A stretch of 20,000 nucleotides of DNA, taken from IMG/VR virus record IMGVR_UViG_3300032523_001510; one strand, written 5' to 3'. The stretch's first letter is position 1. Every line of letters starts with the position of its first letter. Below, piece by piece: positions 407 to 15,465 of this stretch. This DNA comes from an uncultured virus (IMG/VR IMGVR_UViG_3300032523_001510) (taxonomy: Duplodnaviria; Heunggongvirae; Uroviricota; Caudoviricetes). The notes beneath the pieces were generated by a model. The model saw only the letters and a list, made by a program, of their open reading frames with translations, searched no databases and was not told the origin of the DNA. The translations under genes were made by a program, and so were the position numbers.

Positions 407-970
407 ATGAAAGAGATATGCAATAATTTTCCAATCACATCAGAAGAATATTTTGAATTAGATAAAAAATTTGGCAAACTTTGTTATTACGCAGCACATC
501 AATTAAAAAAGAAAAATTCAAAAAACAATTGCGTTGAAGATATAGACGATATAAATCAAGAGCTTCAACTTTCTATTATTCGTGCTGGATCTTATTACAA
601 GAGACAGATTTATATTGAAAGTTCACTTGTGTTGGCCAAGGAACACATCAAGAAGACCGTAAAAAATAAAAAGTTAGTTTTAACTTTGCAAAATTTGTGG
701 AACAACAGGACTCGTCATGGGGCGAATAGACAAAAATTTGGACCTATTCAAGAAAAGTTATTAGACGAATTGATTAAAAAATATGTTCCCAAAGACATCA
801 GACCAAGTAAAACCGAATCGTTAAAAATTGACACAAAGTTTTCGACTTATTGTAAAGCAATTGTTTGGAATGGCCAGAAGAGCATGGGCAAGAAAATTAC
901 TAGAGAAAAAGCTATTCGATCAGGTTTGGTTAGTTTGTCTGAATACGATTATCTTGGTACGAATTTGTAA
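407..970 (+). CDS. Sigma-70 region 2-like protein (putative phage sigma factor) with a large insertion and no region 4
   Basis: EDIDDINQELQLSIIRA resembles region 2.2 (D..DL.QE..igli.A) and KFSTYCKAIVWN resembles region 2.3/2.4 (kFSTYA..wir). 187 aa. Confidence 0.5.
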   Translation: MKEICNNFPITSEEYFELDKKFGKLCYYAAHQLKKKNSKNNCVEDIDDINQELQLSIIRAGSYYKRQIYIESSLVLAKEHIKKTVKNKKLVLTLQNLWNNRTRHGANRQKFGPIQEKLLDELIKKYVPKDIRPSKTESLKIDTKFSTYCKAIVWNGQKSMGKKITREKAIRSGLVSLSEYDYLGTNL

Positions 971-1027
971 CTTCTGATATTGTTCTTCTGCTTAGTTAAT
1001 GTTATTTCGTAAGTAGGAGAAAGTAAA

Positions 1028-2530
1028 ATGAGTTTGACACCAGAAGAACAAGCGATAATCGAGTCGTTAACGAATCCAGAAACGCAACAGACGAAGTTTT
1101 CATGGGACGATATGTTCCAAAAGAAATTGCTTGGTATGTTGCTTACTGATAAATACATGTTGATTCAAAGTATCGACAAACTAAAGCCAGAATATTTTTC
1201 AAATGAAATACATGTTCTGATATCGAAAATTTTATTCGACTACTTCAAAGAAAAGAATTCTATTCCTGATCATTTTATAATGAACACGGAACTCACCTCG
1301 AAGATAAAAGACAAAGATAAAACTATTCAGTTGTATCATTGTGCTGAATTAGGAAGTTTATATAGCTATTATGTTCCCGGACTTGATACGAGAGAATACC
1401 TTATCGATAAGGTATTCTACTTTGCTAAAGTACAAGCGGTAAAAGTAGCATTTCACAATTGTCTTGAAAAAATGAAAAAGGCACCAGAGGAAGAAAAGAC
1501 TTGGGCGTATGTTTACGAGCAAATGCGTCAGTCTATGTTAATCGAGCGATCATATGAACCGGGGCTTGAATACTTTTTAAATATAGATTTGATGTTTGAT
1601 CGCATGGAAGATCAGTTCGCTGGTAAGGATAGATTCACATCTGGATTTCCTTCTATAGATAACAATTTGACTGGAGGTGGCTTATTTCATGGGCAAATAG
1701 CTTCGTGGATAGGATTGCCCGGTACTGGCAAGTCTTTGGCTCTTTCGAAGGCTGCTGTTGCTAATGTTCTTTTAGGCCATAAAGTTTTATATTTAACTAT
1801 GGAAATGGATGAGATAGGAATAGCAACAAGATTTACATCTCAATTTACAAAGATTGATATAAATTTATTAAAAGAGAACAGAGATCAAGTTAAGAGTACG
1901 ATTGAAGAATTTAAAAAGGACAAAGAAAATTCTAATCTTTTAATTGTAAAGCAATTTCCCGGTGGCATGATCGATGTCAATGGTATTAGAGCTTATCACG
2001 CTCAATTGCTTCTTAGAGGTTGGAAGCCAGATTTAGTTATTGTCGATTATGTAGGAGAAATGAAAGATGATCCGACTGTTAAGAAGTACGAGTCTGCTTA
2101 TAGAATATTAAGGGATTTAAGAGGTTTTGGAGTCGAACAAAATCATTGTACATTTACATGTATGCAGCCAAATCAATCAGCAGCAAAATTAGAATTAAAC
2201 GAATATATTGATGAATCAAACATAGGAACATCGTTTGATCAATACAAACCACTTGATGCTTTTTGGTCTATTAATCAAAAAAGTTCCGAGAAGGATGCTG
2301 AAATAGGAAGGGTATTTGTTATTAAGCACAGAAATGGACAATCAAGGTATAATTTCAAAATAGGATTTGATTTATCCATGGGTACATTGGATTTGTATGA
2401 AATAACAAATGAAAAATATAAAGAATTATTTAGCACTTCGAATTCTCATAAAACAGAAGATTTAAATTTCGATCAGTTTAAGGCTGGCGGGAAAAAGAAA
2501 AAATCTGAATCATTTGATGACGAAGAATGA
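1028..2530 (+). CDS. Replicative DNA helicase, DnaB/T4 gp41-like (SF4)
   Basis: N-terminal LKPEYF DnaB-like domain, Walker A GLPGTGKS, LYLTMEM, IVKQFP, Walker B VIVDY, KHRNG arginine finger. SD AGGAG at about 1015-1019. Confidence 0.92.
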   Translation: MSLTPEEQAIIESLTNPETQQTKFSWDDMFQKKLLGMLLTDKYMLIQSIDKLKPEYFSNEIHVLISKILFDYFKEKNSIPDHFIMNTELTSKIKDKDKTIQLYHCAELGSLYSYYVPGLDTREYLIDKVFYFAKVQAVKVAFHNCLEKMKKAPEEEKTWAYVYEQMRQSMLIERSYEPGLEYFLNIDLMFDRMEDQFAGKDRFTSGFPSIDNNLTGGGLFHGQIASWIGLPGTGKSLALSKAAVANVLLGHKVLYLTMEMDEIGIATRFTSQFTKIDINLLKENRDQVKSTIEEFKKDKENSNLLIVKQFPGGMIDVNGIRAYHAQLLLRGWKPDLVIVDYVGEMKDDPTVKKYESAYRILRDLRGFGVEQNHCTFTCMQPNQSAAKLELNEYIDESNIGTSFDQYKPLDAFWSINQKSSEKDAEIGRVFVIKHRNGQSRYNFKIGFDLSMGTLDLYEITNEKYKELFSTSNSHKTEDLNFDQFKAGGKKKKSESFDDEE

Positions 2531-2613
2531 TTATAAATTTTTCAAACTAGCATTGATTAAATTTAATTATATATTTTAATGTGTGTGTACGAACATCAAA
2601 CGAGGTAATTCAA

Positions 2614-3114
2614 ATGTCAGACGAAATTCCGAACGAATGCATTGTTGTCGTGGTATGTGGTAAAGATGTCAGGTTAGATCCAGAATACATGAAATTCAAT
2701 GAAGCTAATATCAATAAATTCATGGAACAAGAGTATGGATGGATTGATTACTTTGGAAAACAACTTGAATTGGCTCAGAAGGAATTAGCCTTGGCATCAT
2801 TAGAATATGATGTTCTGTATAACGAAAAATACATTCAAGTTAAAGATCAGGGAAATTCCGACACATATTCAAAGGCTAAAGCTCAAACAGATACTGTGGT
2901 TATCGATAGTTATAAAAAAATGCTTTCAAAGCGAGAAACGGTTGGTCTTATAAAAGCATATCTTAGAGCTTGGGATAGAAATCATGATAATGCTCAAAAT
3001 CGTGGTCATACTCTTAGAAAAGAATTCGAAAAGCTGAAAGATACTAGGTCTGCTGATTTTCCAGATGTAAGTTACAATCAAGACAAGCAAATAGAGGACA
3101 TATTAAATGGCTGA
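2614..3114 (+). CDS. UvsY-like recombination mediator / coiled-coil protein
   Basis: ATG at 2614 has a GAGGT SD, preferred over the track start at 2581. Helical protein whose pattern and size fit T4 UvsY-like proteins. Lies next to the helicase, in a window that also encodes gp32 and UvsX/RecA. Confidence 0.55.
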   Translation: MSDEIPNECIVVVVCGKDVRLDPEYMKFNEANINKFMEQEYGWIDYFGKQLELAQKELALASLEYDVLYNEKYIQVKDQGNSDTYSKAKAQTDTVVIDSYKKMLSKRETVGLIKAYLRAWDRNHDNAQNRGHTLRKEFEKLKDTRSADFPDVSYNQDKQIEDILNG

Positions 3115-3637
3115 TTTTGAAAATGCAAAGCATTATTCCTTTTCAGACCACCAACTCGAACAAAACATATTATTTTGGCTGTGTGCCGAAGATAATGATA
3201 TTTTGAACGTTGCTAAAAATTTAAATGCATTTTTAGATAAATGGAATGATAAAGGAAAACTTTCTCCTTTTCAAAGCATAAGAAGCATGGTTGATAAAAC
3301 AAATGTTCCATTGGAAATTAAAAACTTTGCGATAAAAGATCATAACGAAAAAGCTATAGTTTTTATACTCCTTGCTTTTTCTGGAATCAATCTTCGCACT
3401 TGTTCGTTTAAAGAATTTTTAAAAGTAAAAGGATTGAAAAACAATGTCGTTAAATGTTTTTTAATTCATACAAGACAGCTTTGCGTTGAAGATTATACTT
3501 ATGAAATAAGTTCGAACAAACCAGAAACAAAAAAAACAATTAATTCAAAGGAACAAAAATCTAAGGACATCATAGACAACAGAGAAATGTTAGATTTTGA
3601 TTTAAGTGTATGGAACATTATCAGGAAAAATAAATGA
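3107..3637 (+). CDS. Hypothetical protein, possibly a degenerate HhH DNA glycosylase (Ogg-like)
   Basis: LRTCSFKEFLKVKGLKNNVVKCFLIHTR resembles an HhH hairpin (L..ikGiG.K.a..FL) but lacks the second Gly and the catalytic Lys. Overlaps both neighbouring genes. Confidence 0.35.
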   Translation: MADFENAKHYSFSDHQLEQNILFWLCAEDNDILNVAKNLNAFLDKWNDKGKLSPFQSIRSMVDKTNVPLEIKNFAIKDHNEKAIVFILLAFSGINLRTCSFKEFLKVKGLKNNVVKCFLIHTRQLCVEDYTYEISSNKPETKKTINSKEQKSKDIIDNREMLDFDLSVWNIIRKNK

Positions 3638-4362
3638 TAGATGTTAATAGGATTTACAATGAAGATTGTCTTGAAACAATGTCGAGAATGCATGATGGAT
3701 TTGTTGGATTGACTGTGACGAGTCCTCCATATGATAATTTGCGTATTTATAATGGTTATGTTTTTGATTATAAAAAAACAGCGGAAAGTTTGTATAGAGT
3801 GACTAAATCTGGAGGTGTCGTTGTTTGGGTTATTGCCGATGGAAGTGTAGATGGTGGAGAAACAGGAACTAGCTTTGAACAAGCTCTTTATTTTAAGAAT
3901 ATAGGATTTAAAATTCACGACACTATGATTTATGAAAAAACAGGATTCTCAAATCCAAGTTCGACTAGGTATCATCAAGTTTTTGAATATATGTTTGTGT
4001 TCAGTAAAGGTTCTCCTAAAACATTCAATCCAATAAAAGATAGAGAAAACAAATACAAAGGAGTTCATGGTGGCGAAAGATCTTTTCGTGAAGATTTTGG
4101 CATGAGATATAACGTTTGGAAGTACGCTAATGGTGGAGGCAATACTTCGAAAGACAAAGAAGCGTTTAAACATCCAGCCCCAATGCCAGAAAAACTTGCT
4201 AATGATCATATAGTTAGTTGGAGCAACGAAGGCGATTTAGTCTATGACCCTTTCATGGGAAGTGGAACTACAGCTAAAATGGCCATCCTAAACAAACGTA
4301 ACTTTATAGGTAGCGAAATATCAAAGGACTATTGCGATATCGCAGAGAAAAGAATTGGGTAA
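3634..4362 (+). CDS. DNA methyltransferase, N4-C/N6-A beta class (copy 1)
   Basis: NEDCLETM, catalytic TSPPY, HPAPMP, SAM-binding DPFMGSGTT, FIGSEIS. ATGA overlap with the upstream gene. Confidence 0.93.
   Translation: MIDVNRIYNEDCLETMSRMHDGFVGLTVTSPPYDNLRIYNGYVFDYKKTAESLYRVTKSGGVVVWVIADGSVDGGETGTSFEQALYFKNIGFKIHDTMIYEKTGFSNPSSTRYHQVFEYMFVFSKGSPKTFNPIKDRENKYKGVHGGERSFREDFGMRYNVWKYANGGGNTSKDKEAFKHPAPMPEKLANDHIVSWSNEGDLVYDPFMGSGTTAKMAILNKRNFIGSEISKDYCDIAEKRIG
4291..4358 (+). repeat. 68-bp direct repeat, copy 1 (3' end of MTase 1)
   Basis: aacaaacgtaactttataggtagcgaaatatcaaaggactattgcgatatcgcagagaaaagaattgg matches 4911-4978 at 63 of 68 positions (offset 620). Confidence 0.95.
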
Positions 4363-4368
4363 AAATTT

Positions 4369-4929
4369 ATGAAAAATTATGAAGATAGACAAGAAGCAAA
4401 AAAAGCAAAATCTGAAAAGTGGATAACAGAATGTGTTGACTTTTGGATTGATAAAATTGATGAATGTGATCTTGGAACTGATTTTTCTGAAGCAACAACA
4501 AATTGCTGGAGATGTGGATACTTAAGAAAACTTCAAAAATGTCACATCATTCCCAAAAGTCTTGGTGGTGAAGACAAACCAGAAAATATCATTCCACTAT
4601 GTTTACAATGCCATGATGAAATGCCAGATGTCCGTGACAAAGAAGAAGTCTTTAAATGGATCAAATCTAGTCATGGAACTATTTATGATACATTTTGGGC
4701 GGAAATTTCATTTGAAATGGCAGATTGCAATTTAGATGATGCTTTTAAAAATGTTGACAATCCAAAGGCTAAAATGGATTTTTTTATTGAAAGAATTAAA
4801 TTTTATTCGGGAGAAACATCATCTCATTTTGGGCAATCATCTGGTGGATCTAGAATGAAACCTTCTACAAGAGCATGGGTTATAAAAAAATCTTTTTCTG
4901 ATACATTTAAAACAAACGAAACTTTATAG
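4369..4929 (+). CDS. HNH endonuclease, probably a free-standing homing endonuclease
   Basis: CWRCG...CHIIPKSLGGEDKPENIIPLCLQCH is a classic HNH with a CxxC...CxxC zinc site. Flanked by direct repeats. Confidence 0.88.
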   Translation: MKNYEDRQEAKKAKSEKWITECVDFWIDKIDECDLGTDFSEATTNCWRCGYLRKLQKCHIIPKSLGGEDKPENIIPLCLQCHDEMPDVRDKEEVFKWIKSSHGTIYDTFWAEISFEMADCNLDDAFKNVDNPKAKMDFFIERIKFYSGETSSHFGQSSGGSRMKPSTRAWVIKKSFSDTFKTNETL

Positions 4930-4978
4930 GTAGCGAAATATCAAAAGATTACTGCGATATCGCAGAGAAAAGAATCGG
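4911..4978 (+). repeat. 68-bp direct repeat, copy 2 (orphaned MTase 3' end)
   Basis: Translates NKRNFIGSEISKDYCDIAEKRIG, identical to the MTase 1 C-terminus. It ends at the GGAGG SD of MTase 2. Confidence 0.95.
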
Positions 4979-4989
4979 AGGCATCACAA

Positions 4990-5763
4990 TTGATAAATAA
5001 AATACACAACGAAGATTGCCTCGATACTATGGCTAGAATGCCAGATGATTTTATCGATTTAACTATAACATCTCCTCCTTATGATAATCTTAGAACATAT
5101 GATGGATATTCATTTGATTTTGAAAGAACAGCAAAAGAGTTATATCGAGTAACAAAGCAAGGTGGTGTTTGTGTTTGGGTGGTTGGCGATGCGACAATTA
5201 ATGGAAGCGAAACTGGAAATAGCTTTAGGCAAGCCATTGGTTTTTTGAATATAGGATTTAATTTGTTTGACACAATGATATACGCCAAGCCACCAAGAGG
5301 TGCAGTCGGAAACAACAAGTCATATTGGCAAACATTTGAATATATGTTTGTTTTATCTAAGAATAAGATAAAAAAAATCAATCTTATATGCGATAGAAAA
5401 AACAAAGAGAGTAGAGATGGCGATAAAGGAACTAAACGGACAAAAAGCGGAGAACTTAAAAATGTAAGTCGTTCTGGATATGGAACGACAGGAAGAAGAA
5501 CTAATATATGGCAATACAATACTGGAAAAGGACACTCGACAAAAGACAAAATAGCGTTTAATCATCCTGCAATATTTCCAGAGCAACTTGCTAATGATCA
5601 TGTAGTTAGTTGGAGCGATGAAGGCGATTTGGTTTATGATCCTTTTGCTGGAAGTGGTACTACTTTAAAAATGGCATTACTCAATAGAAGAAACTTTATC
5701 GGCAGTGAAGTTTCTAGTGAGTATTGCCAAATTGCAAATCAGAGAATTGGAGATTTAAAATGA
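4990..5763 (+). CDS. DNA methyltransferase, N4-C/N6-A beta class (copy 2)
   Basis: TTG start with GGAGG SD at 4977-4981; TSPPY, HPAIFP, DPFAGSGTT motifs. Paralogous to 3634..4362. Confidence 0.93.
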   Translation: MINKIHNEDCLDTMARMPDDFIDLTITSPPYDNLRTYDGYSFDFERTAKELYRVTKQGGVCVWVVGDATINGSETGNSFRQAIGFLNIGFNLFDTMIYAKPPRGAVGNNKSYWQTFEYMFVLSKNKIKKINLICDRKNKESRDGDKGTKRTKSGELKNVSRSGYGTTGRRTNIWQYNTGKGHSTKDKIAFNHPAIFPEQLANDHVVSWSDEGDLVYDPFAGSGTTLKMALLNRRNFIGSEVSSEYCQIANQRIGDLK

Positions 5764-6221
5764 ATGAAAAAATACTGCCGATAAGAAAAAAAAACTTAAA
5801 CGACTTAATTGAATTAGAGTCCATTTGTTTTCCGACACCTTGGATCGAAAAAGATTTCAAAGTTATTTTGACAAGGGAAAAGACAGCAGCGTTTTATTAT
5901 GAGTTAGATAATAAAATGATAGGATATATTATTTACGAAATGAAGCCAAAGCATGTGTTGCTTGTTAATTTCGCAGTACATCCCGATTATAGAAACAAAA
6001 AAATAGGAACAGAATTATTAGATTTTTTAACATCTAAATTGAATCATAAAACTAGATTTGAAATCATTTGCTATGTTGACGAATATAATTTAAATGCACA
6101 GCTTTTTTTAAAAAAAAGAAGTTTTTTTGCCACTCACAATATAAAGAATTTTTTCGAGAATGATTCTGGGGCTATATATTTCATGTATTCTCTTCCTCCT
6201 AAAAAAGAAAGCAAAAAATGA
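5760..6221 (+). CDS. RimI-like GNAT acetyltransferase
   Basis: ATGA overlap start at 5760. LESICFPTPW, GYIIYE, acetyl-CoA motif NFAVHPDYRNKKIG, VDEYNLNAQLF. Confidence 0.85.
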   Translation: MNEKILPIRKKNLNDLIELESICFPTPWIEKDFKVILTREKTAAFYYELDNKMIGYIIYEMKPKHVLLVNFAVHPDYRNKKIGTELLDFLTSKLNHKTRFEIICYVDEYNLNAQLFLKKRSFFATHNIKNFFENDSGAIYFMYSLPPKKESKK

Positions 6222-6709
6222 ATTTCAATGAAATATTTGAATCTGAAGAATTGTCATCTTATAAACCTTCTAGTGATGAAAAGTGGGATTATAGATTTTT
6301 GGAATTGTGCAAATTAGTTTCGTCTTGGTCTAAAGACCCAAGCACTAAGGTTGGTGCTGTAATTGTAGATCAAGATAAAAGAGTTGTGTCTTTGGGATAT
6401 AATGGATTTCCAAAAGGCGTTAGTGATTTTGATTCAAGATACGATGATAGAAATTTAAAATATAAATATGTTGTTCATGCAGAAAGAAATGCAATTATAT
6501 TCGCAAAGACAGATTTGAAAGATTGTATTATTTATACATGGCCTTTAATGCCATGTTCTGCTTGTGCTGGAATTATAATTCAATCTGGAATTAAAAAAGT
6601 TATAAGTGTCGTGAACGACAATGAAAGGTGGAACGAAGAGTTTGAATTTTCAAAACAAATGTTTAATGAAGTTGGAATTGAATTGGAATTAAAAAAGAGA
6701 TTCGAGTAA
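6218..6709 (+). CDS. dCMP deaminase (cytidine deaminase fold)
   Basis: SKDPSTKVGAVIV, GYNGFPKG, HAERNA and PCSAC zinc motifs. Confidence 0.93.
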   Translation: MNFNEIFESEELSSYKPSSDEKWDYRFLELCKLVSSWSKDPSTKVGAVIVDQDKRVVSLGYNGFPKGVSDFDSRYDDRNLKYKYVVHAERNAIIFAKTDLKDCIIYTWPLMPCSACAGIIIQSGIKKVISVVNDNERWNEEFEFSKQMFNEVGIELELKKRFE

Positions 6710-7037: not shown

Positions 7038-7799
7038 TCATAAAAAGAATATTTTTTTGTTATTTTCGGTATTGTCTAGCGGGTAATCGTATTTTTTGCA
7101 TATTTTTTCGAATTCGCTTGCGTGTTCGTTAGTTAGCTGTCTTTTTTTAATTGGTATCTCGTTGCCTTTTCTCCAAGAATTCTCTTTAGTGTTTTCAAAA
7201 CATTTGTTGTTATTTTTTTCTTTTTTTAAAAAGTTTAACAATTCGTTGTTTATTTTTTCTTCTGATTTAAAAATTATATAATCTTTATTTTCTTTAAGTT
7301 GTTTTTCTATAATTTCATGCCATTTAATCATAAAATGTACACATTTATTTAATGGACTTTCTGTGTTTTTTATATTTGAAATATTTTTTTCGCAAAAATC
7401 AATATATGGCTTTGATTCTTTGATAGGCTCGTTCCACATGTGGGCGCATAGAAAAAAAGATGTCAATGTATTCCAAGGATCTCTTACCACGAATATAATT
7501 TTTGTATTTTTTAAAACAGGATCGTTCAAATAAGGTGCCGACATATAGCTTGATTCTGCGATAATATTTTTCGGATCAAATTCGAAATCTCTTTTTTTAT
7601 TTGTTTTTAAATCTATTAACGAACAATAACTCGTGGTTGGTTGTATTTCTCCTTTAATGATTTTTTTTGCATGTTCTAATCCTTGTGGTTTGAAAATAGA
7701 TTCGTGTCCACACATAATGTTTAGACTTGTTAGCAATCTACACATATAAGTTGTTGCACCTTTTGGTAAACCAGTCACTAGATATTTCAATTCGATCAT
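7038..7799 (-). CDS. Sulfotransferase-family protein (P-loop, PAPS-binding-like)
   Basis: VTGLPKGATTYM resembles the 5'-PSB motif and IFVVRDPWNTLTS resembles the 3'-PB motif (RDP...S). CGHE segment present. Confidence 0.7.
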   Translation of the reverse strand: MIELKYLVTGLPKGATTYMCRLLTSLNIMCGHESIFKPQGLEHAKKIIKGEIQPTTSYCSLIDLKTNKKRDFEFDPKNIIAESSYMSAPYLNDPVLKNTKIIFVVRDPWNTLTSFFLCAHMWNEPIKESKPYIDFCEKNISNIKNTESPLNKCVHFMIKWHEIIEKQLKENKDYIIFKSEEKINNELLNFLKKEKNNNKCFENTKENSWRKGNEIPIKKRQLTNEHASEFEKICKKYDYPLDNTENNKKIFFL

Positions 7800-7811: not shown

Positions 7812-8669
7812 ATGAAACCTATTGTTAGATGGACAATTGGAGATAAATGTTCTCCTTTGGGCTTAGTTATATTAAGAGAAGCTGTATCTAGTTTTGTGAG
7901 TATTTACAAGCAAATATTCGATTATTATATTCAATACAATTTTGATTGTTTCGATCAAAAACACAAAGAAGAAAAATTAAAAGACGCATTAAAAGATTTG
8001 GATGTAAATTTTAAAAAACAAATATGGTCCGAGATTCCTGTTGGTGTAAACAAACCAGAAAATAAAATTTTTAGTCGTGTAGACAATTTAAAAGATTCTG
8101 GATCTATTTGGAAAATATGTCCACCAAGAATAAATATAAAAACTCATGAAATAATCATGGACAATGATATTGTTATATACAAAAAGATACCAGAAATAGA
8201 TCAATTTTTAAATTCACATGATAAGTTGTTGGTCTTAGAAGATCCAATAAAATATTATGGTGTTTATTATAAAAATCATGATGATTCTAAGGTTTTAAAT
8301 TCTGGTTTATTTGGATTGTATCCTGATTATGATTTCTCAGAAAATTTAAAATATTTTTGGAACGAAAATGGTAGCTTTAAAAAATTGTCTTATTCAGATG
8401 AGCAAGGTTTTATATGTGGGGTTCTAAGAAGAAGCAACAACATTGTAATATCTAAAAATACAATTGTAGAGATGCATTGCAAGGGATTATGTAAAAACTA
8501 TAAACCAAATATAAAGACTGATAATTTTATGATGGAATACACTAATGATTTGTTTAATGAATTTTACAATAACGGATGTGGTATTCACTTTGTACAAAGC
8601 AACACGAAAGATCATCATTTGGCTTGGGATTTTTTCAAGAAAAAAAGAACTAAAAAATTATTTGTTTAA
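7812..8669 (+). CDS. Putative GT-A fold glycosyltransferase
   Basis: DxD motif IIMDNDIV, LNSGLF, DEQG and IHF, a GT8-like series of motifs. AAGGA SD. Confidence 0.65.
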   Translation: MKPIVRWTIGDKCSPLGLVILREAVSSFVSIYKQIFDYYIQYNFDCFDQKHKEEKLKDALKDLDVNFKKQIWSEIPVGVNKPENKIFSRVDNLKDSGSIWKICPPRINIKTHEIIMDNDIVIYKKIPEIDQFLNSHDKLLVLEDPIKYYGVYYKNHDDSKVLNSGLFGLYPDYDFSENLKYFWNENGSFKKLSYSDEQGFICGVLRRSNNIVISKNTIVEMHCKGLCKNYKPNIKTDNFMMEYTNDLFNEFYNNGCGIHFVQSNTKDHHLAWDFFKKKRTKKLFV

Positions 8670-9784
8670 ATTAATTTTTGTGCTTTTTGTATGGCTGATG
8701 ACATAGAAGCATCGAGATCGAGATATTTATATTCGCCTAATCTTCCTCCAAATGTTATGTTTGATAAGTCTTTTTTTAATTTAAAATATTTAGAATATAA
8801 AATTGAATTTGTTTCATCTCTGATTGGGTAGTACGGTTCTGGGTTTTCTGCGAACGAAATAGGGTGATCGAATGATACAACTGTTGATTCTTTGGTTTCG
8901 ATTTTGTGATCATAGTGTTTTTGTTGATTTTTTTGAAGGTGCTTGTGTTCGATGCTTCTTAAGTACGGAGTGGATAGGTCCACATGATTAAATACTGCGT
9001 TTCCTTGATAGTCTCCTGTAAACACCTTATGTTCGAATCTTAAAGTGTTATATTCAAGTTTTCCAAATTCATAGTTAAAAAACTTATCTATTGGTCCTGT
9101 GTAGACCAAGTGATTTGCCATATTTTGCCATTTTGGAATGTTGTAAAAATCTTCATTAAGTTTCACATCAATGCCATCAAGCATATTTTCTATAAGTTTG
9201 GTGTAACCGTGTTTGGGAACACCTTGGTATTTTGTGGTAAAATAATTTTCTTCATATGTAAGTCTGATTGGAAGTCTTCGAATTATAGATGATGGTAATT
9301 CTCTTGGTTCTTTCATCCATTGCTTTTTTGTATATCCGTAGAAAAATAATTCGTAAATTTGACTGCCGACTTTATCTAAAATCCATTCTTCGAAGTTCCT
9401 TGGGTATTCGCAAGGTATTCTAACTTCATTGAGTTTTATTCGAGCTTCTTCTGGTGTGACGACTCCCCAAAGTTGATGAAGTGTCATCATGTTTATTGGG
9501 AAAGAATAGACTTTATTATTAGATAGTATTTTTGGTTTATTGATAAAAGGTTCGATTGTGCAAAATCTTGATATAAATTTATAAATTTCATCACTATTGC
9601 AGTGCCATATATGTGCGCCATATGAAGAAATTATTTGTCCGTTTTCGTGCGTGTAATCATGTGCTGCGCCTGCAACATGGTAATTTTTATCTATTAATAG
9701 GCACTTTTTGCCAGCATCTGTTGCTGTTCTTGCAAAAGTAGATCCAAATACACCAGCACCAACGATTAGAAAATCGTATTTCAT
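8666..9784 (-). CDS. glf: UDP-galactopyranose mutase
   Basis: FAD-binding VGAGVFG, YGAHIWH, YTKKQW, YQGVPKHGYT, EPYYP and GRLGEYKYLD motifs; full length at 372 aa. Confidence 0.95.
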   Translation of the reverse strand: MKYDFLIVGAGVFGSTFARTATDAGKKCLLIDKNYHVAGAAHDYTHENGQIISSYGAHIWHCNSDEIYKFISRFCTIEPFINKPKILSNNKVYSFPINMMTLHQLWGVVTPEEARIKLNEVRIPCEYPRNFEEWILDKVGSQIYELFFYGYTKKQWMKEPRELPSSIIRRLPIRLTYEENYFTTKYQGVPKHGYTKLIENMLDGIDVKLNEDFYNIPKWQNMANHLVYTGPIDKFFNYEFGKLEYNTLRFEHKVFTGDYQGNAVFNHVDLSTPYLRSIEHKHLQKNQQKHYDHKIETKESTVVSFDHPISFAENPEPYYPIRDETNSILYSKYFKLKKDLSNITFGGRLGEYKYLDLDASMSSAIQKAQKLI

Positions 9785-14517: not shown

Positions 14518-15465
14518 TTAAATCATTGATTTGATTTGTTCGTAAGCGTGTTGTCTACTTTCTAAATTTGAAAACCCAATAATTTTTTTTGAAATTAAAT
14601 TTCGCTTGATTCTTTTAATCAGCCAATTTTTAATTTCTGTTAATTCTTTGGTTAATTCATAATCATTGTTCATCTTTAGAAGAGAAAAAAAATCATGTGG
14701 ATCAATCCAGCAATAGCCAGACATGTAGTCGTTTTCTCTATATGTCTCTGGCATTCCTTTTTTGATGCAACACTCACAAAAATGTAAAATTAGTTTAATC
14801 CAATTCCTCATATCGTCTGCATTGTTGCAGCAATCATTGTCCATTATTCTGAATTCTATTGTGTCTCTTCTTTTGTTTTTTTTATGATAAGTATTCAAGC
14901 TGTAATATTTGACTACCCCAAAAAGATTCATTAATTCGCTTAATGTATAGAAGCTAGAATTTACTTTAAACATTTTGTTCATACTTATGAACATGCAATA
15001 GGAGTTTAACTTTCTGCAATCCATTACAGAATCAAAAAAAATCGGTTCGCATTTAATCCACCAAGTTAAAATGCTTAGTAGTTTTTTATCTGTCATATCA
15101 GAAACATCTACATGAACATGAACAGAGCATCTCTTATCGGCAGAAAAATTGTTTTTATCAATCAGATCAACAACATCACAAACTTTTTCTATGCCATGTA
15201 TTCCTTTGAGTACTGGGGATACAATTTCTATTCCGCAGCTACTATCGGGTTTAACACCCCAATTAGAATTATTGTGATCGTTTTGCCATTTTGTTACAAC
15301 TACATTCGTGCAAAGAGTCTTGCTTATTTTACAGGCAACTTCTTCGATTCCTTTTGGCAAAAGTTTATCGTTTAGTGGTTTGCTCAATAAGTCAAAAGCG
15401 TTTAATTCTATTTCTACGCCAAAACGCCTATTGCTTTCATAATTTGAAATTTCTTTAGAGTCCAT
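14518..15465 (-). CDS. Putative amidoligase (COOH-NH2 ligase type 2 / Amidoligase_2-like)
   Basis: RRFGVEIE, DSSCGIEIVSPVL, CSVHVHV, KYYSLN and TIEFR, the characteristic motif series. Confidence 0.8.
   Translation of the reverse strand: MDSKEISNYESNRRFGVEIELNAFDLLSKPLNDKLLPKGIEEVACKISKTLCTNVVVTKWQNDHNNSNWGVKPDSSCGIEIVSPVLKGIHGIEKVCDVVDLIDKNNFSADKRCSVHVHVDVSDMTDKKLLSILTWWIKCEPIFFDSVMDCRKLNSYCMFISMNKMFKVNSSFYTLSELMNLFGVVKYYSLNTYHKKNKRRDTIEFRIMDNDCCNNADDMRNWIKLILHFCECCIKKGMPETYRENDYMSGYCWIDPHDFFSLLKMNNDYELTKELTEIKNWLIKRIKRNLISKKIIGFSNLESRQHAYEQIKSMI

Follow-up and report, generated by a model that had tools for sequence, protein, structure and literature searches.

An HNH endonuclease gene between two copies of a methyltransferase gene end in an uncultured freshwater phage

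A gene for an HNH endonuclease was found between two neighbouring DNA methyltransferase genes (here MT1 and MT2) of an uncultured member of the Caudoviricetes, in a stretch of 20,000 nucleotides (nt) from the IMG/VR record IMGVR_UViG_3300032523_001510; this whole stretch is referred to as the window. The HNH gene is bracketed by two copies of the last codons of MT1, only the upstream one of which is in frame with the methyltransferase. In our view, this is probably a free-standing homing-endonuclease gene, which sits in the 3' end of MT1 and spreads by recombination together with the upstream tail copy. The comparisons presented here establish how the locus is built, that both empty and occupied alleles exist, that the gene is mobile and that the tail copies stem from two alleles. 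The features concerned are listed below with their window coordinates and lengths in amino acids (aa).

3634..4362, plus strand: MT1, N6/N4 DNA methyltransferase, 242 aa (PF01555, E 5.3e-43, profile positions 3-221 of 221)
4290..4358, plus strand: copy 1, the tail of MT1 and its in-frame working 3' end, inherited with the HNH gene
4359..4368, plus strand: left junction or cassette leader, which gives MT1 its TAA (4360-4362) and lies directly before the HNH ATG
4369..4929, plus strand: HNH endonuclease gene, 186 aa (PF01844, 3e-08; PF14279, 5.4e-07)
4910..5000, plus strand: copy 2, the displaced native MT1 tail (repeat 4910-4978, native-type end GITIDK, stop 4998-5000)
4990..5763, plus strand: MT2, N6/N4 DNA methyltransferase, 257 aa, TTG start (PF01555, 7.4e-41)
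5682..5750, plus strand: MT2 tail, a third copy of the repeat at 70%, of the type found in the single chimeric methyltransferase of the closest relatives

The duplicated gene end and the HNH gene

A repeat search identified positions 4290-4358 and 4910-4978 as a direct repeat with 64/69 identical nucleotides (93%) and a spacing of 620 nt. An earlier sequence-only reading of this DNA had described a 63/68 repeat flanking the HNH gene with none but synonymous third-position differences, and both observations were borne out. The 20-kb window contains a 26-nt core of this repeat at exactly two places, and none of 200 shuffled versions contained it. Compared over 23 codons in the MT1 frame (4291-4359 vs 4911-4979), the copies differ at the five sites listed by that reading (CGT/CGA, AAG/AAA, GAC/GAT, TAT/TAC, ATT/ATC) and additionally at GGG/GGA; all six differences are in third position, all six are synonymous, and both copies encode the peptide NKRNFIGSEISKDYCDIAEKRIG. 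In a Monte Carlo simulation, six placed substitutions were all synonymous with a probability of P = 3e-5 under a uniform model and P = 1.4e-4 with transition bias. The proportion of changed synonymous sites (pS) between the tail copies is ~0.47 (6 of ~13). Since all six changes are synonymous and pS reaches this value, the copies must have diverged while both coded for methyltransferase. The substitution pattern thus shows that they come from two alleles or lineages and not from one duplication drifting in place. Variants at the differing sites occur piecemeal in natural alleles, and 4/6 sites share variants with HNH-less alleles; in the small allele set examined, only CGT and GAC (copy 1) and GGA (copy 2) were private. 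Since natural alleles show ordinary polymorphism at the sites that differ, we see no sign of purposeful recoding. The idea of the sequence-only reading that the silent changes might immunise the gene against its own nuclease receives no specific support from these variants.

With copy 1 as its end, MT1 finishes in RIG followed by the TAA and is 6 aa shorter than the 248-aa HNH-less alleles. The Pfam domain of this occupied-state protein is matched in full, and its ratio of nonsynonymous to synonymous substitution rates (dN/dS) is 0.05 against the HNH-less allele at locus L041. Copy 2 has no upstream reading frame, as translation in the MT1 frame meets stops just before it. It contains the HNH stop (4927-4929), a GGAGG (4977-4981) and the start of MT2, and its own stop (4998-5000) overlaps the region of the MT2 TTG start at 4990. 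MT1 and MT2 are paralogues with 57-59% amino-acid identity, and their final 254 nt are 72% alike; the N-terminus of MT2 (MINKIHNE..) is also present in relatives.

Two further observations concern this segment. Each tail copy holds a perfect 12-bp palindrome over its C-D-I-A codons (4333-4344 and 4953-4964), which in copy 2 extends to 14 bp (4952-4965) because of the TAT/TAC difference; these palindromes could be a protein-binding site, or chance. In addition, MT1 and the HNH gene share a reading frame, with one TAA and two sense codons between them (4360-4371), and read-through of the TAA would give an MT1-HNH fusion. At another locus with an HNH copy (L120, see below), the upstream gene is likewise in frame with the HNH gene, with two stops in between.

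The HNH gene is a stand-alone open reading frame (ORF), preceded by the MT1 TAA (4360-4362) and closed by its own TAG (4927-4929), outside any intron or intein. An Rfam search for introns across 3400-6400 found none, the sole match being a snoRNA model with an E of 0.77, below the gathering score. The insert also differs from a transposon or insertion sequence, as the HNH gene is its sole ORF and no inverted repeats pair its ends at ~4359 and ~4908. Across 47 homologues, residues C46, C49, H59, C78, C81 and H82 are invariant and N73 is nearly so, and the AlphaFold2 model of the protein has a predicted local distance difference test score (pLDDT) of 94. In structure comparison, relatives were found for the HNH core only, namely McrA, the Gme nicking HNH and, within IscB and Cas9, the HNH domains. 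No Foldseek hit reached E <= 0.001, and for the helical C-terminal half, which has no clear match, a wide VIA search gave a best Z of 5.3, at noise level. The family comprises 289 representatives at E <= 1e-10, and dN/dS of the window gene against distant copies was 0.22 and 0.16. Judged from these values and the conserved residues, the family is large and under purifying selection, and the protein looks functional.

The right end of the gene has an unusual composition. The part homologous to the family ends at 4908, and the last seven codons and the TAG are copy 2 read out of frame. The native C-terminus, as seen in the homologue at L039, reads ..DTFPEYKKENNA, whereas the window protein ends in ..DTFKTNETL, where after DTF the first 19 nt of copy 2 supply KTNETL and the TAG. 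Because homology with L039 stops at 4908, we place the right junction at 4908/4909, with loss of the native HNH 3' end. The out-of-frame tail peptide, or a one-residue variant of it, terminates 9 of the 11 fetched members of a 12-member HNH cluster, and this sharing indicates one founding junction that later spread. There is a hint that the variants of this peptide are synonymous in the methyltransferase frame: two of the three are, 4919 A>G is also seen as DNA, and the third would be synonymous only if it were C to A.

Empty and occupied alleles and HNH copies elsewhere

The sequence-only reading had predicted an HNH-less allele in which a copy-2-type MT1 end is coupled directly to MT2, and such alleles were found at L041, at L022 and in run X8. 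At L041, a 248-aa MT1 ends in ..NKRNFIGSEISKDYCDIANKRIKDVVSDK, with a stop overlapping the GTG at which a second methyltransferase begins; the flanking genes show 98-99% protein identity to the window. Locus L022 carries tandem methyltransferases with a tail-to-start overlap as in copy 2. Runs X4, X5, X6 and X8 were compared as Logan contigs, so that uncovered parts are uninformative. Run X8 holds both HNH-less and HNH-bearing contigs, and in its empty-allele contig position 4355 is joined to 4991 via 15 nt that complete ..RIKDIVSDK and a stop, after which the contig matches the window MT2 with 0 differences over 260 nt. The protein P0130 equals the window MT1 at residues 1-241 and then continues with KDIVSDK, and the tail end ..RI[EKG]D[IV][VI][SN]DK is common to the 248-aa alleles P0001, P0126, P0127, P0130 and L041. 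Because the empty alleles L041, L022 and X8 show this arrangement, copy 2 represents the native MT1 end with its original coupling to MT2.

The MT1 protein cluster has 36 members, and tails were tabulated for the 15 listed. The full tail is present in 8/15 (six of 248 aa and two shorter gene calls), the 242-aa form in 2/15, an MT2-type tail in 4/15 and a different end in 1/15. At the same site, the HNH gene is present in the window, in L040 and in contigs of X4, X5, X6 and X8, and absent from L041 and the X8 empty contig, and the flanks of occupied and empty alleles are 96-99% identical. An exact 36-nt word of the MT2 start had no match in the viral contigs. A 23-nt degenerate junction motif recovered 10 loci; a tail-bearing methyltransferase lies upstream in 2/10 (the L041 and L022 contigs), and the other 8/10 share merely the MINKIHNE start.

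The junctions, for which the earlier reading had raised the possibility of misassembly, recur in material from other samples. A 1428-bp X4 contig from another study covers 4249-5676, and with it both junctions, with 0 differences; L040, which comes from yet another sample, matches window positions 526-4688, including the left junction, at 99.95% identity, and a 45-kb X5 contig has the left junction as well.

The HNH gene was also detected without a methyltransferase beside it. A metagenome scan with the HNH alignment gave 5 loci, and copies at 64-88% identity without an adjacent methyltransferase are present at L039, L120 and L121-L123. The nearest copy outside this phage group (L039/L121; 73% aa and 78% nt identity) is flanked by a hypothetical gene and a gene for a helicase in an unrelated phage, and nucleotide homology between the window and L039 spans 4368-4908, the ORF alone. 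At L120, the gene in front of an 88%-identical HNH gene is unrelated and 201 aa long, and a sigma-factor-like gene lies upstream. Here, homology to the window extends over 4346-4972 (93% over 630 nt) and comprises the last 13 nt of copy 1, the cassette leader with one base changed, the HNH gene and the first 63 nt of copy 2. This corresponds to one period of 620 nt with 7 nt of overlap, located at an A-rich word found in both copies, and the 620-bp unit postulated by the sequence-only reading is therefore found as one period at a non-methyltransferase site. The L120 element is flanked by a 20-nt direct repeat (19/20) of the target (2967-2986 and 3616-3635), which takes in the final codons and stop codon of the preceding gene, and 8 filler nt separate the element from the second repeat. 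It follows from this layout that the methyltransferase-tail remnant travels with the HNH gene, and from the flanking repeat that cassette insertions create target duplications. For the gene preceding the L120 cassette, the viral contigs contain no relative and thus provide no empty L120 site. The flanks of L039, L121 and L122 hold direct repeats of <=11-12 nt that are A-rich and were taken as chance or ribosome-binding-site likeness. Comparison of these sites shows the HNH gene to be mobile.

Signs of exchange were concentrated at the 3' end of MT1. The last 260 nt of MT1 differ from L041 by 23 mismatches (8.8%), compared to ~3% over the other 3.6 kb compared. The two L022 methyltransferases, A and B, have 50-76% nucleotide identity to the MT1 body and 93-96% from ~codon 200 onward. 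These two genes (L022 4001-4762 and 4752-~5520) show ~55-60% protein identity to MT1/MT2 and have a ~130-nt 3' module in common, which on these alignments is a shared, exchanged gene end. Mosaic tails are also found among members of the MT1 cluster, e.g. P0128.

The HNH-bearing alleles fall into two haplotypes, a window/L040/X4 type and an X5/X6/X8 type. They show 0 differences in 4177-4718 vs 11 in 3682-4176, and they differ at ~8 positions in 4977-4990 (GGITIDK and TTG vs KDIVSDK and GTG); for X5 and X6, the link of the HNH contig to the divergent end of copy 2 is derived from unitig overlap and depth. This pattern is consistent with homing in which the left crossover lies upstream of copy 1 and the right one within copy 2.

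Several relatives carry other rearrangements of the methyltransferase. A single 245-aa methyltransferase directly before the GNAT gene is encoded at L001 2135-2872 (record G001, the nearest to the window) and at L015/L016 ~3992-4729. It combines the MT1 body with an MT2-type tail, without HNH gene or MT2, and its switch point, at ~window 4284, coincides with the left repeat edge; this chimera looks like a deletion in which the 3' ends of MT1 and MT2, which are 72% alike, recombined. At L029 (256-965), a methyltransferase relative with an MT1-like tail (81% aa) is broken by a frame change, and at L033 (2044-3147) another is in two pieces ~270 nt apart; both may be further damaged or invaded alleles. 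In the 824-aa methyltransferase of L009 (968-3442), the Pfam domain is split by a large insert that begins like an intein, and an ORF nested in this insert has an HNH-like CxxC..H motif; Pfam named neither the insert nor the ORF.

Proposed route of insertion and alternative explanations

The arrangement can be accounted for as follows. In the ancestral empty state, the last codons of a 248-aa MT1 would have overlapped the MT2 start. In the occupied state, the cassette lies between two copies of the last 23 conserved MT1 codons. The upstream copy is in frame and closed by the cassette TAA, leaving MT1 with a complete domain and 6 aa short, and the downstream copy is the original tail, which goes untranslated in the MT1 frame and provides the HNH stop as well as the ribosome-binding site and start of MT2. 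During mixed infection, the HNH enzyme would nick or cut an HNH-less MT1 in or near the tail-coding segment, and the phage's own recombination system would mend the break from the HNH-bearing genome; the RecA/UvsX-like and gp32-like proteins encoded in the window count in favour of such recombination-based homing. The left crossover would fall in MT1 upstream of copy 1, so that copy 1 travels with the HNH gene, and the right crossover in copy 2 or MT2, so that the far part of copy 2 stays the recipient's.

The founding event was probably a homologous repair that was one-sided and ended in an illegitimate right junction. In an MT1-MT2 phage, breakage close to the beginning of the tail-coding segment would have allowed the left end to invade a donor in which an MT1-type gene ending in RIG and a stop was followed by the HNH gene. 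After synthesis through the donor tail and the HNH gene, the new strand would have been joined illegitimately to the right end of the recipient, which would have retained its own tail, and the native HNH 3' end would have been cut off. The core idea of the sequence-only reading, insertion of an HNH gene along with an MT1 3' end from an alternative allele, is supported by the empty alleles and by the two-allele origin of the copies.

Several points weigh against homing with the upstream copy. We infer cleavage, the cleavage site and the order of events from sequence comparison. The microhomology at the right junction amounts to at most 1-3 nt. Every word of <=69 nt of an identically spelled empty allele persists in the occupied allele; since the tail duplication keeps all such words, insertion alone cannot destroy a short target. 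A carrier might escape its own nuclease through the sequence differences, through a site that is long or spans a junction, through modification of its DNA, or by tolerating cuts in itself. The dN/dS of the HNH gene relative to the recent copy L120 is 0.55. Positions 3400-3681 likewise show 0 differences between the two haplotypes, and the genome is generally patchy. Finally, the sample at DNA level comprises two HNH-bearing haplotypes and three or four empty alleles.

As a tentative extension, which we hold to be possible but doubtful, the duplicated tail could act as portable homology arms of a self-contained 620-nt cassette. Four consequences would follow. The cassette would enter any methyltransferase gene with the conserved 3' module, and the gene would survive; recombination between the copies would lead to exact loss and restore the 248-aa gene; the short A-rich word of both copies would permit jumps to unrelated sites (L120); and repeated break repair would spread the ~130-nt 3' module among ~60%-alike methyltransferases (L022). 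The chimeric methyltransferases of the relatives (MT1 body, MT2-type tail) would then be deletion products escaping the nuclease.

Alternatively, 69 nt of a single MT1 allele might have been duplicated at insertion by break repair or template switching, with the synonymous differences introduced through later allele exchange; no replacement end would then have been carried at the founding event. The L120 cassette did generate a target duplication of 20 nt (19/20) covering the last codons and stop of its upstream gene, and methyltransferase 3' ends are visibly exchanged (L022 A/B, mosaic tails as in P0128). However, this scenario needs extra events, as a pS of 0.47 demands that at least one whole copy was replaced, and copy 1 is invariant between the two HNH-bearing haplotypes, so that we regard it as unlikely.

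It is also conceivable, although rather improbable, that the locus is no target of the HNH enzyme and that the layout is the scar of illegitimate recombination between phages, with the nuclease in another role or as a selfish passenger. Among solved structures, those nearest to the HNH core belong to McrA-type and nicking HNH enzymes and not to characterised homing enzymes, a search of the HNH protein for a specificity domain identified none, and Barth et al. state, in the available text of their study, that homing is not inferable from sequence alone (PMC10448857). On the other side stand the presence or absence of the gene at a single exact site in genomes whose flanks are >95% identical, the close HNH copies at three unrelated sites and the raised divergence in the last 260 nt of MT1 (8.8% vs ~3%).

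That the HNH enzyme is the restriction partner of MT1 and/or MT2 appears very improbable. A nuclease does lie between two DNA methyltransferases here, and HNH restriction enzymes exist (PacI in the fold list). Yet the closest relatives (L041, G001, L015, L016) have methyltransferases without the HNH gene, L039 and L120-L123 have the HNH gene without an adjacent methyltransferase, and the insertion scar itself speaks against it; HNH gene and methyltransferase are not co-inherited as the unit that a type II restriction-modification system would form. An assembly artefact, i.e. a mis-join of two strains producing the 620-nt repeat, can practically be dismissed: De Bruijn unitigs of X5 and X6 do break within copy 2, but the X4, L040 and X5 contigs described above reproduce the junctions, and the right junction recurs in the nine HNH-cluster proteins from several sources.

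Related systems, genomic context and significance

The principle of the proposed insertion has a counterpart in the mORF gene hybrids of fungal mitochondria, reported for atp6 of Allomyces macrogynus and for atp6, atp9, cox2 and nad3 of Glomus sp. (PMC3630166). In the available text of that study, such hybrids consist of an endonuclease ORF together with an in-phase C-terminal copy, the native C-terminal part being stranded downstream; most or all of the changes that distinguish the copies are synonymous, and the inserted end is attributed to transfer from a different lineage (PMC3630166). As far as this account goes, the window shares the ORF in the 3' part of a host gene, the in-phase copy upstream, the native part downstream and the origin of the copies from two lineages. 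It differs in its phage host and in the nuclease type, HNH vs LAGLIDADG or GIY-YIG. With 69 nt, the piece duplicated in the window is short, it has diverged by only 9%, and a stop codon separates the ORF from the host gene. Moreover, the nuclease takes its 3' end and stop out of frame from the remnant, and the remnant serves as ribosome-binding site and start of the next gene. The locus therefore works like the mORF gene hybrids without being a strict member of that group, given its phage host and HNH enzyme. The sequence-only reading had called a carried replacement C-terminus unusual; few descriptions of such a layout exist for phages, but it has a precedent in fungal mitochondria (PMC3630166).

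Intronless homing is known for the free-standing homing endonucleases SegF, SegG, SegB and MobE of T-even phages (PMC2988022), and one-sided homing with illegitimate repair at microhomologies has been observed experimentally in T4 intron homing (PMC2988022). As in the T-even cases covered by the available part of this source, the window has a stand-alone gene in a DNA-metabolism region, which is present or absent among relatives (PMC2988022). Co-conversion of flanks, ectopic transposition-like insertions and illegitimate one-sided repair are likewise described there (PMC2988022). The T4 examples are intergenic or split a gene (mobE in Aeh1 nrdA), and a duplicated gene end is not described in the available text (PMC2988022). 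Unlike the T-even examples, the HNH enzyme here is of the zinc-bound McrA-like type.

Nucleases at recombination boundaries have been reported (PMC10448857, available text). In phage T6, according to the available text, SegB drives the formation of 718-bp tandem repeat units (PMC13096335). There, as in the window, the unit consists of a piece of the target plus the nuclease gene, with the 3' end truncated at a microhomology with the target start (PMC13096335). The T6 case is a laboratory-selected multi-copy amplification of tRNA and segB (PMC13096335), whereas the window has a single nuclease copy between 1.1 periods that is stable in nature across several samples. Literature listings, covering titles and abstracts, contained no phage nuclease gene flanked by a duplicated gene end, which is weak evidence of absence. 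What is new here is the combination of HNH type, phage host, methyltransferase target and a nuclease C-terminus built from the remnant; new as well are the re-use of the remnant as the start region of the next gene and an ectopic copy with exactly one repeat period.

The window represents a DNA-metabolism region of an uncultured freshwater phage. It is AT-rich (~32% G+C), and freshwater metagenomes make up the majority of the runs containing this stretch. Pfam assigned a DnaB-like helicase, the two N6/N4 DNA methyltransferases, a GNAT acetyltransferase and a dCMP deaminase, and further products include the gp32-like protein, the RecA/UvsX-like protein and a DEAD-box helicase. A search for distant DNA similarity among named phage genomes returned no close relative, with a top match of 67% identity over 38% of the query. 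Promoter-like sites were not enriched (14 found vs 14.3 expected from shuffles). On the minus strand, the window also encodes a UDP-galactopyranose mutase (8666-9784; PF03275, 2.4e-66), a weakly sulfotransferase-like product (7038-7799) and an amidoligase-like product (14518-15465), which may have glycan-modifying or other auxiliary functions.

Together, the empty and occupied alleles show how, with neither intron nor intein, a selfish nuclease gene can settle within the coding part of a phage gene, namely by leaving a working copy of the gene end in frame, and they extend to phages a principle known from fungal mitochondria. For enzymology, the locus makes available a compact HNH enzyme whose candidate natural target is defined. 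Furthermore, it provides an explanation for what may appear as annotation noise in phage genomes: mosaicism at methyltransferase 3' ends, orphan gene-end fragments and slightly shortened genes.

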